From Candidatus Woesearchaeota archaeon (GTDB lineage Archaea; Nanobdellota; Nanobdellia; Nanobdellales; CAZNIQ01), in the NCBI GenBank assembly GCA_964573185.1, contig CAZNIQ010000013.1:1-18966 (forward strand): a DNA stretch of 18,966 nt, given 5' to 3'. Under the pieces are notes generated by a model. The model was not told where the DNA came from. It saw only the letters and a list, made by a program, of their open reading frames with translations, and made no database searches. Below, piece after piece: positions 1,835 through 15,432 of the stretch. Every line of letters begins with the position of its first letter. The stretch's first letter is position 1. Both the position numbers and the translations under genes were made by a program.

Positions 1835-1884
1835 ATGAAGAGCACGGCCGCCACTGATTTAATGATGATTTTTCGAGGAGCAGA
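1835..1884 (+). ncRNA. Box C/D sRNA candidate (sR-a), 50 nt
   Basis: C AUGAAGA (1835-1841), 12-nt guide GCACGGCCGCCA (1842-1853), D' CUGA (1854-1857), loop UUUA, C' AUGAUGA (1862-1868), 12-nt guide UUUUUCGAGGAG (1869-1880), D CAGA (1881-1884). Both spacers are exactly 12 nt. The terminal boxes each deviate from consensus at the positions that pair with each other (U.U to A.A). It lies in the divergent gap between the radical SAM gene and the 1914 ORF. The GC-rich guide stands out in AT-rich sequence. Confidence 0.6.
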
Positions 1885-2339: not shown

Positions 2340-2731
2340 AAAAATAAAATAGCTAGTAAAACTCTAAGAATAGTTGCCAAGGTCATCAAAGTATCTGTAA
2401 CTTTGATATATTTTCCATTCCAAAGTTTCCAAACGTAAATTAATCTATTTTTAAATCCCCAAAGTTCTTTCCATTCTTTAGGATCGACTAAAAACCACAT
2501 AATATCGTTTAAAGCCCAGGAAAGCAAAAGCATCCCAAGCCAGATATTCCATTTTTCAGGATAGAGGATTAATAATGGAATATAAGGTAGAGATACCATA
2601 AAGGGATAAATCCTTATGTGATATCCAATATCTCTGAAATCTTTACCTAAAAACTTTTGTTTACCATACATACTATCCAAGAATGTTATAATTAAGCCTA
2701 TTAAAAATGCAAGAAGAATATATTTTAACAT
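2327..2731 (-). CDS. Hypothetical integral membrane protein, 134 aa
   Basis: About 4 hydrophobic segments (LLAFLIGLIITFL, PFMVSLPYIPLLILY, WLGMLLLSWALNDIMWFLV, LATILRVLLAILFFYLV). No family recognised. Confidence 0.6.
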   Translation of the reverse strand: MLKYILLAFLIGLIITFLDSMYGKQKFLGKDFRDIGYHIRIYPFMVSLPYIPLLILYPEKWNIWLGMLLLSWALNDIMWFLVDPKEWKELWGFKNRLIYVWKLWNGKYIKVTDTLMTLATILRVLLAILFFYLV

Positions 2732-2778
2732 GATGAGTTCAGCCTTAACAGATTAATGAAGAAAAGGTGATCCCCTGA
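2730..2778 (+). ncRNA. Box C/D sRNA (sR-b), 49 nt
   Basis: C AUGAUGA (2730-2736), 12-nt guide GUUCAGCCUUAA (2737-2748), D' CAGA (2749-2752), loop UUA, C' AUGAAGA (2756-2762), 12-nt guide AAAGGUGAUCCC (2763-2774), D CUGA (2775-2778). It fills the gap between two minus-strand genes on the opposite strand. The C box overlaps the start codon (2729-2731) of the membrane ORF, and the D box abuts the L39e stop (2779-2781). Confidence 0.8.
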
Positions 2779-2988: not shown

Positions 2989-3336
2989 ATGGTAGATATT
3001 GAAGAGATTAGAAGGAGAAAACTACTAGAGTTGTATCAGAAATTAAAAGAAAAGCAAGAAGAGGAAAAAGCAAAAGAAGAACAAATAAAAGCACAAATAG
3101 AACAAATGGAAGAAATAGTAAAGTCCTATTTGACAAAAGAAGCTAGAGAACGATTAAATAATCTTAGAATAGCACATCCTGAAAAATACTTACAAGCTTT
3201 ACAAATATTATATTACAATATAGTTACTGGAAGGTTAAATAGAAAGCTTACAGATGAAGATCTCAAAAAAATATTACGAGCGATGTTTTCAAGAGAAAAG
3301 AAAGAGACAAAAATAAGGATAATCCATGAATATTAA
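2989..3336 (+). CDS. DNA-binding protein, PDCD5/TFAR19 homologue (COG2118 family), 115 aa
   Basis: EIRRRKLLEL...LTKEARERLNNLRIAHPEKYLQALQILYYNIVTGRLNRKLTDEDLKKIL matches the conserved archaeal PDCD5-like dsDNA-binding protein family. Confidence 0.85.
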   Translation: MVDIEEIRRRKLLELYQKLKEKQEEEKAKEEQIKAQIEQMEEIVKSYLTKEARERLNNLRIAHPEKYLQALQILYYNIVTGRLNRKLTDEDLKKILRAMFSREKKETKIRIIHEY

Positions 3337-4331
3337 TGTATGATAATCCATTTTTCCTAATTTCTTCTTTTCTTTTAGGCTTTGTTTTACCTTTTATCAT
3401 TTTTAATAAAATAAAGGAAACAACAGGAAATACTCTACTAACTTTGGCTTTGGCTGGAATAATCTTTGGAATAATTTACCAATTTGAGGATACATTGTTA
3501 TCCTATTCTCCAATTACCATTTATACCTCTGTTTTTTATTTAGGATTTTGGGCAGCTATTTTCTTCTCTATAATCTCCGCTGGTGCAAAATATACTGTTT
3601 CTACATTTAGAACTATTGGAAAGGTGATGAAACCAATAGCAAGGTATACTGAGAAGGCTATTAAAGAAACAAAAAGAGAGATAAAAGAAGTAAAAAAGGA
3701 AGAAAAAATTATAAAGAGTATTAAAAGCAAAGTTTCAAAAGCTTTAAAATATATTTTTGAGGATCCTGAGAAATCAATTAAATTATTAAAAGAAGCTTAT
3801 AGTGAAACTTTAGAAGTAATGAATAAAGTAAAATTTTTGTTAAGAGAGGAAGTTGAAGAATCTGAATTATTGGAAAATATAGAAAAATGGGATATGTTTT
3901 TAGAAAAATATAAACATTTTAGGAATGTATACATTCAATATTTTTTGAGTACTCTAGAAAGAGAGGTATTAAGAGAAAGAAAATTGATAGAAGAAATTAA
4001 AAAAGAAGATATAGCTGAAGAAAGAACTCTAGAGGATATTTATAAAGATTTACAAAGATTAGCAGAATTAATAAGAACTTTAATATCTTTGATAAAATGG
4101 AAAAATTATTATTATGATCTTAGAAGATGGTATAATAATGTTACTAAAATAGTGGAGGAAATGAGGACTTTATTCAAGAAACTGGAGAAAGATGAAAAAA
4201 GATTAGCTAAATTAGTTAAGGAAGAATTATCTTTAGAGAAGAAACTTGAGAAAGAGGAAAGTAAAATGAAAAAAGTTATGAAAAACATTGGAAATAAGAT
4301 TAAAAAATTTGGAAAGAAGTTGAAAATATAG
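3336..4331 (+). CDS. Hypothetical membrane-anchored coiled-coil protein, 331 aa
   Basis: Three N-terminal hydrophobic helices (residues ~5-95) followed by ~230 aa of K/E-rich heptad-like sequence. The start ATG shares its A with the upstream TAA (TAATG at 3334-3338). No family recognised. Confidence 0.6.
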   Translation: MYDNPFFLISSFLLGFVLPFIIFNKIKETTGNTLLTLALAGIIFGIIYQFEDTLLSYSPITIYTSVFYLGFWAAIFFSIISAGAKYTVSTFRTIGKVMKPIARYTEKAIKETKREIKEVKKEEKIIKSIKSKVSKALKYIFEDPEKSIKLLKEAYSETLEVMNKVKFLLREEVEESELLENIEKWDMFLEKYKHFRNVYIQYFLSTLEREVLRERKLIEEIKKEDIAEERTLEDIYKDLQRLAELIRTLISLIKWKNYYYDLRRWYNNVTKIVEEMRTLFKKLEKDEKRLAKLVKEELSLEKKLEKEESKMKKVMKNIGNKIKKFGKKLKI

Positions 4332-4459
4332 TGATGATGGCTCAGTAATCTGACGCCTCCGGGAGTCCAGCGGGGTTGAGACCCCTAAGTGGGGACTGTG
4401 ATACCCCGTCCCGTCGCCCGGAGGACAGAAATAAGAATGATGAATAGGGCGACGTCTGA
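4331..4459 (+). ncRNA. Composite guide RNA candidate (sR-c): a box C/D sRNA whose D'-C' linker is an 83-nt H/ACA-like K-turn hairpin, 129 nt
   Basis: C GUGAUGA (4331-4337; its first G is the last base of the upstream TAG stop), 12-nt guide UGGCUCAGUAAU (4338-4349), D' CUGA (4350-4353), GC-rich insert 4354-4436, C' AUGAUGA (4437-4443), 12-nt guide AUAGGGCGACGU (4444-4455), D CUGA (4456-4459), then T5. Apart from the tRNA, this is the only long GC-rich patch in the window. Confidence 0.75.
4356..4427 (+). ncRNA. H/ACA-like pseudouridylation-guide hairpin embedded in sR-c
   Basis: Lower stem CCUCCGGG (4356-4363) pairs with CCCGGAGG (4417-4424), 8 Watson-Crick bp, directly followed by ACA (4425-4427). 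Pocket strands are AGUCCAG (4364-4370) and UCCCGUCG (4409-4416). Upper stem is 4371-4376/4403-4408 (6 bp). K-turn: U4377.U4402, G4378.A4401, A4379.G4400, 3-nt bulge UGU (4397-4399), C-stem 4380-4385/4391-4396 (one A.A mismatch), loop UAAGU (4386-4390). There are 16 nt between the base of the upper stem and ACA. Confidence 0.55.
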
Positions 4460-4464
4460 TTTTT
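4460..4464 (+). terminator. Oligo-T tract (T5) immediately after the D box of sR-c
   Basis: CUGA is followed by TTTTT. Archaeal transcription commonly terminates at oligo-T. This is weak evidence in an AT-rich genome. Confidence 0.35.
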
Positions 4465-4488
4465 AAGATTTAAAATTACTACTTCTAA

Positions 4489-5124
4489 ATGATTATTGAT
4501 TTTGATTCTCTAGAGCAAAGAATACTAGATTCTAAGTTTGAAAATTTGTGTTCTTTATTTAAAGATTACGATAAAGAGCTAATTCTAAATTACGAGTGTC
4601 ATCCTTATTTTAGAAGGGAAATAAAAACAGAAGGAACTGAAATTACTATAAGTGTTTATTATTTTCCAGGAAAAATCTTTAACGGAAATAAAAAAGATGG
4701 TTTGATAGATAGTATAATAAGAGAAATTAATCCAAATTTTATAGGAGAAGTTTATATAATAAATGCAGAAGTACACTCTAGAACGGGAAATCCTCCTAAA
4801 ACTATTTTAACAACATACAAAAATAATTTATTATTTTATTTTATTAAATTACGTTTCGGATTTGAATTAGAATATTCCTTTTTCAGCGGAGATTCTGGAT
4901 ACGGATTTGCAAAGTTCATAAAAAATGATCCCATAACTTATATTTTAATAGAAGATAGAGCAATACATTGGAATGAAAATGTTGTTTATTTAAATTCTCG
5001 GATAGAATCCTTTGTAGCTTTTTCTATAGGAACTCCTTATGAAGTAAAGAAGAAAGGATATAATGAGTTAAAAGATATTGTTACTTTACTTTTATATAAA
5101 ATTTTGGCTCAGAGATCCAGTTAG
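4489..5124 (+). CDS. Hypothetical protein, 211 aa
   Basis: ORF track only; no motif recognised. Its 3' end overlaps the convergent 5081-5356 gene by 44 nt. Confidence 0.5.
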   Translation: MIIDFDSLEQRILDSKFENLCSLFKDYDKELILNYECHPYFRREIKTEGTEITISVYYFPGKIFNGNKKDGLIDSIIREINPNFIGEVYIINAEVHSRTGNPPKTILTTYKNNLLFYFIKLRFGFELEYSFFSGDSGYGFAKFIKNDPITYILIEDRAIHWNENVVYLNSRIESFVAFSIGTPYEVKKKGYNELKDIVTLLLYKILAQRSS

Positions 5125-5356
5125 ATTTGCATCTTGGACATTGAGATGGAACTTTTATTTCTTTTTTGAAAGTATATCCACATTTATTACATCTTGCTGG
5201 AATTATTTCAAATTTCCATCCTTTTCTTTTAGCGATCTTCTCTATTTTCCTTAAATACTCTATAATTACTCTTCTATTTTCTATTTGCAATTCTCTTGAA
5301 AGTTCTGAAACACTATAAGGCTTCTTACTAATTAAATCTATAATCTTTTCAATCAT
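5081..5356 (-). CDS. Small transcriptional regulator, N-terminal HTH fused to a C-terminal zinc ribbon (COG3357-like), 91 aa
   Basis: The N-terminal helix-turn-helix-like segment is KKPYSVSELSRELQIENRRVIIEYLRKIEK. The C-terminus carries CxxC...CxxC (CNKCGYTF...CPRCKS). Confidence 0.7.
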   Translation of the reverse strand: MIEKIIDLISKKPYSVSELSRELQIENRRVIIEYLRKIEKIAKRKGWKFEIIPARCNKCGYTFKKEIKVPSQCPRCKSNWISEPKFYIKVK

Positions 5357-5365
5357 TATTACTTT

Positions 5366-5845
5366 ATGGAAAGAAAATATATAGCAGATACTTCCTTCTT
5401 CTTAAACTTTAATTTAATTTATAATATTTTTAAAATATATACTGTTCCGGAAGTTATTGAAGAAGTGAAAGATAGATTAAATAGAATAAAGCTTGGAATG
5501 TTTGATATAAATGTTTTAAATCCAAAGAAAAAGACTATTGAGGAAATAAAAAAGAAAATTTTGGAATTTATGCCTTTGGAAAAATTATCAGATACAGATA
5601 TTAAAATAATTGCTTTAGCTTATGAATTAAAAGGGATAGTTCTTACAGATGATTTTTCAATTCAAAATGCTTGTTACTTTTTGAGGATACCGTTTCAAGG
5701 AGTAACTAGAGAAATAAAGGAAGCTTATATATTTAGAAAACTTTGTCCAAATTGTAGAAAGATTTATTCAAATGATAAAAAGAAATGCAGTATATGCGGA
5801 TCTAATCTAAAAATAATTATTTATAGAAAAATCAGCCGAGAGTGA
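5366..5845 (+). CDS. nob1: Nob1-type endonuclease (PIN domain plus zinc ribbon), 159 aa; matures the pre-16S rRNA 3' end
   Basis: PIN-like N-terminus (YIADTSFF), the conserved LSDTDIKIIALAYELKGIVLTDDFSIQNACYFLRIPF block typical of Nob1, and a C-terminal zinc ribbon CPNCRK...CSICGS. Confidence 0.8.
   Translation: MERKYIADTSFFLNFNLIYNIFKIYTVPEVIEEVKDRLNRIKLGMFDINVLNPKKKTIEEIKKKILEFMPLEKLSDTDIKIIALAYELKGIVLTDDFSIQNACYFLRIPFQGVTREIKEAYIFRKLCPNCRKIYSNDKKKCSICGSNLKIIIYRKISRE
5827..5831 (-). terminator. Oligo-T tract (T5 on the minus strand) immediately after the D box of sR-d
   Basis: The minus strand reads CUGA-TTTTT-CTATAA. This is weak evidence in an AT-rich genome. Confidence 0.35.
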
Positions 5846-5881
5846 GGCTCTTCACTTTTCAAGGCCCCGAATCTTCATCAT
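5832..5881 (-). ncRNA. Box C/D sRNA (sR-d), 50 nt
   Basis: Minus strand: C AUGAUGA (5881-5875; it contains the cysS TGA stop at 5880-5878), 12-nt guide AGAUUCGGGGCC (5874-5863), D' UUGA (5862-5859), loop AAA, C' GUGAAGA (5855-5849), 13-nt guide GCCUCACUCUCGG (5848-5836), D CUGA (5835-5832), then T5. It fills the whole convergent gap between nob1 and cysS and is antisense to the last 14 nt of nob1. Confidence 0.7.
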
Positions 5882-14709: not shown

Positions 14710-15419
14710 TTTTTGTCGAACCAGAGCATCCTGAAAATATAGGTAATATAGCTAGAGTTATGAAAAACTTTGGTTTTTATAAATTAATTTTGGTAAATCC
14801 TCAATGTGAAATAACAGAAAAAGCATATATAGTTGCAAAGCATGCTAAAGATGTTTTAGAAAATGCAAAAATTTTAGAAACATTAGATGATGCTTTAAAA
14901 TTATTTGATTTGAATATAGGAACTACTGGAAAGTTTGCTGATGAAACAAATGTGATAAGATCAGTAATACCTTCAGATATTTTGCCAAAGCTTTTATCAA
15001 AATATACCGGTAAAGTTGGGTTATATATTGGAAGAGAGTCGATAGGTTTCACAAATGAAGAACTAAAGAAATTCGATATCGTTGTTACAATACCTACAAA
15101 TCCTGAGTATCCAATAATGAATGCTTCACATGCTGCTGCAGTATTGTTGTACGAATTATTTAAAGCGGTAAGAAATCCTGTTTTAGAAAGAATTAGAATA
15201 GCCTCTAGAAAAGAAAAGGAAGTGATAATGTCTATGATTGATAAGATAGTTAATAAGATACCTATACAAGAATATAGGAAACCTATTATGAAAAGAGTGT
15301 TATGGAACGTTATAAATAAGGCAATACTAACCAAAAAAGAAGCTTCTGTTTTGGCAGGTTTCTTTAGAAATATTTTAGAAATGATCAGTAACACGCCATC
15401 TCATCATAATCAGGAGTAG
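14694..15419 (+). CDS. trmJ: SpoU/TrmH-class RNA 2'-O-methyltransferase, TrmJ-like (COG0565), 241 aa
   Basis: N-terminal VIFVEPEHPENIGNIARVMKNFGF, plus GRESIGFTNEEL and IPTNPEYPIMNASHAAAVLLYE (SPOUT knot motifs). The tRNA position 32 specificity is inferred from the family only. Confidence 0.8.
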   Translation: MDVTVIFVEPEHPENIGNIARVMKNFGFYKLILVNPQCEITEKAYIVAKHAKDVLENAKILETLDDALKLFDLNIGTTGKFADETNVIRSVIPSDILPKLLSKYTGKVGLYIGRESIGFTNEELKKFDIVVTIPTNPEYPIMNASHAAAVLLYELFKAVRNPVLERIRIASRKEKEVIMSMIDKIVNKIPIQEYRKPIMKRVLWNVINKAILTKKEASVLAGFFRNILEMISNTPSHHNQE

Positions 15420-15432
15420 CCTAATTCATCAC
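15385..15432 (-). ncRNA. Box C/D sRNA (sR-e), 48 nt, all four boxes consensus
   Basis: Minus strand: C GUGAUGA (15432-15426), 12-nt guide AUUAGGCUACUC (15425-15414), D' CUGA (15413-15410), loop UU, C' AUGAUGA (15407-15401), 12-nt guide GAUGGCGUGUUA (15400-15389), D CUGA (15388-15385). It is antisense to the last 35 nt of trmJ. TTTAAATA lies at -30 to -23. Confidence 0.85.

Follow-up and report, generated by a model that had tools for sequence, protein, structure and literature searches.

A candidate composite box C/D and H/ACA guide RNA with nested topology in an uncultured Nanoarchaeote

Can an archaeal RNA carry both kinds of modification guide at once? RNAs that guide both 2′-O-methylation and pseudouridylation are regarded as a eukaryotic speciality, the scaRNAs (small RNAs that are specific to Cajal bodies), and the sole known archaeal case is a tandem transcript in the Sulfolobales. 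The question is raised by a locus at positions 4331-4459 on the plus strand of contig CAZNIQ010000013.1 (assembly GCA_964573185.1), a stretch of 18,966 nucleotides (nt) that was analysed at its full length and is called the window below. Read 5′ to 3′, the locus opens with box C and, after 12 nt, box D′; a GC-rich insert of 83 nt then leads to box C′, and another 12 nt lead to box D, which is followed by a run of five Ts (T5). It is probably a real small-RNA gene with a working C/D framework, and the insert, judged by its letters and its predicted fold, shows all structural hallmarks of an archaeal H/ACA guide. We give a probability of about 45% to the reading that the locus encodes a composite guide, that is, a canonical C/D small RNA (sRNA) that would hold a complete single-hairpin H/ACA pseudouridylation guide in its D′-C′ loop. 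The features of the locus are the following.

4300-4307, plus strand: possible TATA-like box, TTAAAAAA, centred about 27 nt upstream of G4331; weak, in flanks of 75% A+T
4331-4337, plus strand: box C, GUGAUGA (sequence read and motif scan)
4338-4349, plus strand: D′ guide, UGGCUCAGUAAU, 12 nt between C and D′
4350-4353, plus strand: box D′, CUGA (sequence read and motif scan)
4356-4363, plus strand: lower stem, 5′ strand, CCUCCGGG, 8 base pairs (bp) with 4417-4424
4364-4370, plus strand: 5′ pocket strand, AGUCCAG, unpaired save for isolated pairs; G4370 may pair with U4409
4371-4376, plus strand: upper stem (H2), 5′ strand, CGGGGU, 6 bp with 4403-4408
4377-4402, plus strand: kink-turn (K-turn) and distal stem-loop, read from the sequence, with the distal stem in the predicted fold
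4403-4408, plus strand: upper stem, 3′ strand, ACCCCG (predicted fold)
4409-4416, plus strand: 3′ pocket strand, UCCCGUCG (predicted fold)
4417-4424, plus strand: lower stem, 3′ strand, CCCGGAGG (predicted fold)
4425-4427, plus strand: ACA box, immediately 3′ of the lower stem
4428-4436, plus strand: single-stranded A-rich linker, GAAAUAAGA (sequence and fold)
4437-4443, plus strand: box C′, AUGAUGA (sequence read and motif scan)
4444-4455, plus strand: D guide, AUAGGGCGACGU, 12 nt between C′ and D
4456-4459, plus strand: box D, CUGA (sequence read and motif scan)
4460-4464, plus strand: T5 run, likely an archaeal terminator, directly after box D

The outer part of the locus has what is expected of an archaeal C/D sRNA, namely RUGAUGA and CUGA terminal boxes, internal D′ and C′ boxes and two guide spacers of exactly 12 nt. 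The initial annotation, made from the letters of this DNA, had described the boxes, both spacers, the T5 run and the 83 nt between D′ and C′ (4354-4436), and all of them were found in place. It had also given 2-4 nt as the D′-C′ distance in the four other C/D sRNAs of the window, for which we counted 4, 3, 3 and 2 nt. The first base of box C, G4331, doubles as the last base of the TAG stop codon (4329-4331) of the open reading frame (ORF) at 3336-4331, as had been noticed earlier. The position of the TATA-like box agrees with the box A spacing of Nanoarchaeum equitans RNA genes, for which T-stretch terminators have been described (PMC3491384). In a genome of about 29% GC, the locus has a GC content of 0.60 compared with about 0.25 in its flanks, and the window holds only three GC-rich islands, which are this locus, a tRNA gene and a stretch within the CysRS gene.

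A minimum-free-energy fold of the insert reproduced the hairpin that had been proposed from the sequence, with its 8-bp lower stem followed by ACA, its pocket, its 6-bp upper stem and its K-turn. The predicted energy was -39.7 kcal/mol (z = -3.6), and 0 of 200 shuffled sequences were equally stable. The K-turn is made up of U4377.U4402, the tandem pairs G4378.A4401 and A4379.G4400, a UGU bulge (4397-4399) and the closing pair G4380-C4396. From this closing pair the distal stem continues into 4382-4385/4391-4394 with the loop UAAGU, and its second pair is an A.A mismatch (A4381/A4395), which refines the earlier description. According to published rules, productive archaeal H/ACA RNAs have 7-9 bp in the lower stem, carry a K-turn in the upper one and use guide strands of about 5-8 nt, and ACA follows the pocket-closing pair at a distance of 14-16 nt, with 14-15 nt in productive P. 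abyssi folds (PMC2377435, PMC4652768); between the pocket-closing pair and the second G.A pair they stack about 10 layers (PMC4652768). The hairpin at this locus has an 8-bp lower stem and then ACA, a K-turn, pocket strands of 7 and 8 nt and an ACA distance of 15-16 nt. The earlier figure of 16 nt holds when C4371-G4408 closes the pocket, with 9 stacked layers to the second G.A pair; when G4370.U4409 is paired, as the minimum-free-energy prediction has it, the distance becomes 15 nt and the layers number 10, compared with 8 and 9 in the N. equitans hairpins. The assignment to the archaeal single-hairpin H/ACA architecture is thus in keeping with the published geometric constraints, and hairpin 2 of the N. 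equitans H/ACA RNA matches it as well.

The same hairpin could instead be a structural element. The locus would then encode a C/D sRNA in which an L7Ae-binding hairpin merely joins D′ and C′ and protects a long RNA at high temperature, with no Cbf5 guide and with ACA and the internal loop present incidentally. The existence of archaeal C/D RNAs with long structured D′-C′ spacers supports the composite reading, and at the same time some of these spacers are purely structural, in the tRNA-Trp intron RNAs of the Methanoregulaceae and in Micrarchaeota. Our searches returned such RNAs with D′-C′ inserts of 65-83 nt from Methanoregulaceae (L023, L025, L106 and L110) and from Micrarchaeota (L073 and L111). 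The L023 copy lies inside a tRNA-Trp intron, which is a known type; L025, L106 and L110 are the same RNA, and compensatory changes are seen in the insert hairpins. L073 stands alone without tRNA flanks, L111 is nearly identical to it, and the D guide of both ends in GGAGC. The inserts of these RNAs have no K-turn, no pocket and no ACA, whereas the RNA described here has all three, and unlike the Methanoregulaceae RNAs, which lie in a tRNA intron, it is not flanked by tRNA exons. An unpaired loop of 7+8 nt between GC stems is also costly in a hyperthermophile and needless for stabilisation, and the lower-stem length, the ACA position and the distances from pocket to K-turn and from pocket to ACA fall jointly within the H/ACA windows, in a geometry that matches the lineage's own H/ACA RNA in N. 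equitans. A structural role would be in line with the fact that the pocket found no significant target in the proxy ribosomal RNAs (rRNAs) that were searched, which were those of E. coli, of H. marismortui (megaplasmid record) and of N. equitans (16S and 23S, copied out by hand from a supplementary alignment of PMC4644070), and that conservation of pocket and ACA was seen in no homologue. It would also have a parallel in the S. islandicus K-turn hairpin RNA sR666, which according to the cited literature binds L7Ae and Cbf5-Nop10 without a guide pocket. On this evidence we consider a purely structural hairpin unlikely, if still deserving of serious attention.

The composite guide would fit a lineage that already has H/ACA RNAs of this build. 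The only Nanoarchaeota H/ACA RNA detected by experiment, through RNA sequencing, is a 159-nt two-hairpin sRNA of N. equitans (Randau 2012, PMC3491384), a member of the same phylum. Its hairpin 2 has nearly the same build as the hairpin described here, with a 7-nt 5′ pocket, a 6-bp H2, one non-Watson-Crick pair, tandem G.A pairs, a 3-nt bulge, a 7-nt 3′ pocket and an 8-bp lower stem with ACA about 16 nt away. In contrast to the composite RNA, it is a stand-alone RNA with two hairpins, no C/D boxes and other pocket sequences, and none of the C/D sRNAs of N. equitans shares the two guides of the composite RNA. Hairpin 1 of the N. equitans RNA ends in an internal ACA that is followed at once by the second hairpin (PMC3491384), and H/ACA hairpins therefore tolerate additional sequence on their 5′ and 3′ sides. 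We then scanned about 230 kb of Nanoarchaeota-like DNA with a descriptor that consisted of a lower stem, a loop, an upper stem, G.A pairs with a bulge, and ANA. GC-rich matches were obtained at three places only, namely the composite locus, hairpin 1 of the N. equitans H/ACA RNA and, on the minus strand at L131:10124-10196 of the Nanoarchaeote GCA_053994055.1, a new single-hairpin H/ACA sRNA; the AT-rich matches were visibly spurious. The new sRNA stands alone between two tRNA genes and is preceded by a TTTAAA box about 24 nt upstream. Its lower stem is 9 bp long (UCCCGCCAG/CUGGCGGGA), the 5′ pocket reads AGAACGA, the 3′ pocket is GACGA followed by A-ACA, and the 8-bp upper stem makes 10 layers with its G.A/A.G pairs, next to a GAU bulge. 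Like the composite RNA it is a K-turn hairpin with ACA, but its geometry is the textbook 10/5/9, its pockets differ and it has no C/D boxes. This find indicates that the lineage uses H/ACA guides, normally in stand-alone form.

The C/D part, too, stands among its own kind. Half-units of the form TGATGA-N12-CTGA (at most 1 mismatch) occur 10 times in the window, where 1.17 would be expected, and 0 of 200 shuffles reach 10. The four other C/D sRNAs are listed here.

1836-1884, plus strand: C/D sRNA with canonical UGAUGA and CUGA boxes internally and degenerate AUGAAGA and CAGA boxes terminally
2731-2778, plus strand: C/D sRNA (motif scan)
about 5833-5881, minus strand: C/D sRNA that overlaps the 3′ end of the CysRS ORF
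15385-15431, minus strand: C/D sRNA (motif scan)

N. equitans 23S offers, at 1823-1834, a match to 11 of the 12 positions of the D′ guide (AGAUUCGGGGCC) of the sRNA at about 5833-5881 (2% of shuffles equal), and another guide of these four sRNAs scores 10.5 of 12 against N. equitans rRNA (3% of shuffles equal). With four more C/D sRNAs and with neighbouring guides that match N. equitans rRNA, the window is therefore the right genomic setting for the C/D part. The sRNA at 1836-1884, with its stronger boxes on the inside, has the layout that a circularly permuted gene would have.

Precedents for both guide types on one RNA further support the composite reading. In human scaRNAs of the U85/SCARNA10 type, one RNA guides both 2′-O-methylation and pseudouridylation, and the H/ACA part lies inside a terminal C/D core, which is the nested arrangement also seen in the composite RNA, itself known from DNA alone. 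U85 reportedly modifies adjacent nucleotides in the U5 small nuclear RNA. The scaRNAs have a two-hairpin H/ACA domain, an H box, CAB boxes, a length of about 330 nt and a residence in Cajal bodies, none of which applies to the composite RNA, which combines one hairpin of 72 nt, lacking hinge and H box, with canonical archaeal 12-nt guides. They also use Nhp2, which binds without a K-turn, whereas the composite RNA has a K-turn of the L7Ae type. According to a 2021 review, scaRNAs do not exist in archaea, nor do Cajal bodies.

The archaeal precedent comes from the Sulfolobales, where an H/ACA hairpin (Sso1/Sto1/Sac1) is directly followed by a C/D sRNA (Sso-159/sR4/sR39) (Muller et al. 2009, PMC2651775). 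The initial annotation named no archaeal example of a composite RNA and took this one as possibly undescribed, and this has to be corrected in view of the tandem transcript; the nested topology alone appears to be undescribed, and a nested archaeal C/D-H/ACA arrangement was not found in the archaeal literature that we searched. Both the Sulfolobales RNA and the composite RNA are archaeal, form one transcription unit (a predicted one in the composite RNA) and join a single K-turn H/ACA hairpin with ACA to a complete C/D sRNA. They differ in order, with the H/ACA part 5′ and the C/D part 3′ in the Sulfolobales and the hairpin within the C/D unit here, so that the composite RNA is not of the tandem type. 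The Sso1 type is also conserved across several species and active in vitro (PMC2651775), in contrast to the composite RNA, which is a prediction from one population. The target of the Sso1 type is U35 of pre-tRNA-Tyr, for which the composite pocket is unsuited, since it needs GGGA or GGG directly 5′ of the target U. The anticodon loop of tRNA-Tyr has C-U-G at that place.

The Northern blot of S. solfataricus showed a long form with H/ACA and C/D parts (about 120 nt) and a short form with the H/ACA part only (PMC2651775), and this brings up the explanation that the long RNA is a precursor. The H/ACA hairpin would then be released and accumulate alone, like the short form of Sso1, and the C/D boxes would be processing or stability signals, or the RNA would circularise. 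The gene may in that case have arisen from a tandem H/ACA-C/D unit by circular permutation. The symmetry of archaeal C/D RNAs would make nested and tandem forms interconvertible by such a permutation, circular and permuted C/D sRNAs are known from N. equitans (PMC3491384), and the sRNA at 1836-1884 carries its canonical boxes internally as a permuted gene would. Excision of the hairpin would, however, leave the two half-guides C-guide-D′ and C′-guide-D, from which no normal small ribonucleoprotein (RNP) could be built unless they were religated. At the borders of the hairpin the sequence shows neither a bulge-helix-bulge nor any other processing motif, and the perfectly canonical state of all four boxes and of the two 12-nt spacers speaks for selection on the C/D function. 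A hairpin that is released in this way seems to us distinctly improbable.

The composite interpretation given in the initial annotation finds support in part. Several findings weigh against a composite guide, and the first of them concern the targets, where the search for sites that had been suggested with the initial annotation, made on the proxy rRNAs, yielded one weak candidate for the D′ guide and no significant one for the pocket or the D guide. For the D guide there was no candidate in the proxy rRNAs, and 89% of shuffled guides did equally well. In N. equitans rRNA the pocket fits best at 23S U864, a site within the helix 35 loop and close to E. coli 740 (CGAAGGGG-UG-GUGGCCU, 12 pairs), with a score of 11.5 of 15 that 12-15% of shuffled pockets equalled. 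The core GGGG-U-N-CUG is likewise present in the 23S of Pyrobaculum calidifontis, Thermoproteus tenax and Sulfolobus acidocaldarius. A U in the loop of 23S helix 35 would be the best candidate, if a tentative one, and the pocket would fit 5′-CGACGGGA-U-N-CUGGACU-3′ or a near match, which is predicted for this loop. Two other sites, the GTPase-centre site (E. coli U1058) and N. equitans 23S U2799, ranked below helix 35. The two pockets of the N. equitans H/ACA RNA itself score no better against their own rRNA, and real archaeal guides tolerate mismatches according to the cited literature. The test is therefore insensitive, and we do not count its negative outcome for the pocket against function.

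The D′ guide has as its top complement a homologous 16S site in all proxies, at 560-571 in E. coli (AUUACUGGGCGU), at 498-509 in H. marismortui and at 528-539 in N. equitans (AUUAUUGGGCCU), with 9-10 pairs plus G.U pairs. The match is a weak one, as 9% of shuffled guides score equally. The D′ guide would most likely direct 2′-O-methylation of the 16S C equivalent to E. coli C564, and the 16S of the host is predicted to carry AUUACUGAGCCA at the site of E. coli 560-571, facing the guide. In sense orientation the D′ guide is identical at 10 of 12 positions to CGGCUCAGUAAC, the consensus of archaeal 16S at about E. coli 100-115; with 4% of shuffles equal, this is probably a coincidence.

Other unfavourable points come from the RNA itself. 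The short spacer with which archaeal C/D sRNAs form a kink-loop (K-loop) between D′ and C′ is missing, as the 83-nt insert stands where archaeal C′/D′ motifs normally form it, and beside the C′/D′ motif just one Watson-Crick pair is possible, C4354-G4435. Against the productive range of 14-15 nt, both the 3′ pocket strand (7-8 nt) and an ACA distance read as 16 nt are borderline. The recommended check against Rfam returned no family for the locus at the gathering and E-value thresholds; the best match was PyrR201 with 17.2 bits (gathering 49, E = 1.7), and the second, PyrR208 with 14.9 bits, was below threshold as well. The H/ACA models of Rfam are lineage-specific, so this result carries little weight.

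The remaining unfavourable points are found in the genomic surroundings. The ORFs of the window are archaeal and include topoisomerase VI, Hjc, Nep1 and CysRS. The nearest named relatives of the CysRS are those of Nanopusillaceae, Nanobdella and Nanoarchaeum equitans, and the host is therefore taken to be an uncultured, AT-rich and presumably hyperthermophilic Nanoarchaeote. The RNA is present with 100% identity in the ENA contig L002, the Logan contig L001 and the JGI metagenome contig L127, of which L127 differs from the window by 4 single-nucleotide polymorphisms (SNPs), every one of them in the downstream ORF; these sequences place the three contigs and the window in one population. The source samples are those behind SRR7968109, ERZ27262635 and JGI Ga0256838. 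Outside this population the nearest genome is GCA_054017035.1 (contig L003), with a CysRS that is 90% identical. The comparison of syntenic loci, which had also been proposed, did not bear out conservation, as this genome is without the composite sRNA segment at the syntenic site. Besides the sRNA, the missing segment, which corresponds to window positions 4332-5877, contains a PIN_6 gene, a PF0610-like zinc-ribbon ORF and two orphan ORFs. In L003 a diverged homologue of the ORF at 3336-4331 directly adjoins CysRS, and from this and the missing segment the interval 4332-5877 is therefore read as a variable island. Two further observations were made on these contigs. At L003:12415-12557 Rfam reports a tRNA that spans 143 nt and for which ARAGORN makes no call; it has two GC-rich halves and between them an insert with mutually complementary ends (…CCCCGCCGCCGUC / GACGGCGGCGGGG…), and it resembles the long-intron or split tRNA genes of Nanoarchaeota. 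Just beyond the window, at L002:18036-21416 on the plus strand, lies a FlaI/T2SSE-type ATPase gene with an intein and LAGLIDADG domains.

An independent homologue of the composite RNA was found in none of the loci, viral contigs and metagenomes searched. The genome collection was searched with the pattern TGATGA-N12-CTGA-N{65,95}-TGATGA-N12-CTGA, and the matches listed, at least 120, were bacterial noise, pairs of sRNAs in tandem and RNAs of tRNA-Trp introns, with no Nanoarchaeota among them; they do not inform on the distribution of the RNA. A metagenome scan with the strict hairpin pattern returned the same population (L127) only, the viral-contig scans returned nothing relevant, and no second composite came to light in eight more loci of Nanoarchaeota and other archaea, reached through six CysRS-anchored look-ups. 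The flanking ORFs at 3336-4331 and 4489-5124 are orphans, without homologues in 5.8 billion proteins except for one partial match in the closest relative. With orphan flanks and no independent homologue in these searches, the RNA may stem from a fusion that is recent and possibly neutral.

Taken further, this leads to the explanation that an H/ACA hairpin recently landed in a C/D sRNA within the variable island and produced a non-functional or decaying gene, in which one or both modules are inactive. That the RNA is known from one population only, that the sRNA segment, the two orphan ORFs and the PIN gene are missing from the closest relative, that the flanking ORFs are orphans and that the D guide is without an rRNA target in the proxies would all agree with such an origin. 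The gene shows no sign of decay, however, with perfect boxes, spacers and K-turn, a perfect ACA and two GC-rich stems without a flaw. Across four assemblies the RNA does not vary, compared with 4 SNPs in the neighbouring ORF of L127, a weak argument with about 0.2 SNP expected in 129 nt. We regard a non-functional fusion as very improbable.

The two modules of the composite RNA are also complementary to each other. Positions 4447-4454 of the D guide (GGGCGACG) are perfectly complementary over 8 nt to positions 4412-4419 (CGUCGCCC), which cover the 3′ pocket strand and the top of the lower stem. An 8-nt run of complementarity between D guide and pocket was obtained in just 0.5-0.8% of shuffles. 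The duplex of D guide and pocket (-17.7 kcal/mol) and the lower stem (-16.0 kcal/mol) are equally strong, and C4415 would face the fifth nucleotide upstream of box D, which is the position that determines methylation. The complementarity hints at cross-talk between the modules and can be read in three ways from the sequence. It may reflect a self-directed methylation or a gating of the hairpin, or it may represent an alternative fold. The C/D guides of tRNA-Trp introns act in cis on their own transcript, which is a possible analogy. Thirdly, it may be a by-product of two guides that address both strands of one rRNA helix, because complementary targets on one helix make the guides complementary to each other; the target of the D guide, ACGUCGCCCUAU, would then lie on the strand that pairs with the target of the pocket.

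If the locus encodes a composite guide, a transcript of about 129 nt would end at T5. L7Ae would bind three sites of the K-turn type, namely C/D, C′/D′ and the K-turn of the hairpin, and a Nop5-fibrillarin dimer would use both 12-nt guides. Cbf5-Nop10-Gar1 would dock on the 8-bp lower stem and ACA and use the 7/8-nt pocket. According to the cited literature, proteins from Pyrococcus function with heterologous guides. From the observed sequence anatomy, fold, geometry and genomic context we infer expression, protein binding, the presence of both modules in one particle and all of the targets. The most far-reaching proposal would place fibrillarin-Nop5 and Cbf5-Nop10-Gar1 together on one nested archaeal guide RNA with three L7Ae sites, a scaRNA-type RNP outside eukaryotes. 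In this proposal the D guide would in addition methylate C4415 or compete with the lower stem, so that the modules would be coupled or gated, or alternatively both guides would attack the two strands of one rRNA helix. We put it forward tentatively and think it somewhat on the unlikely side.

The weight of the finding is limited by one sequence from one population. A tandem of the two guide types is already known in archaea, and the nested topology appears to be undescribed there. If the composite reading is true, the RNA would bear on how composite guides originate, be it through an insertion, for instance, or through mobile C/D sRNAs that become circularly permuted, and with 129 nt it would offer structural studies of a dual-enzyme RNP a very small and thermostable model. 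The two RNP systems that share L7Ae would then be seen to share one scaffold in a prokaryote with a minimal genome.

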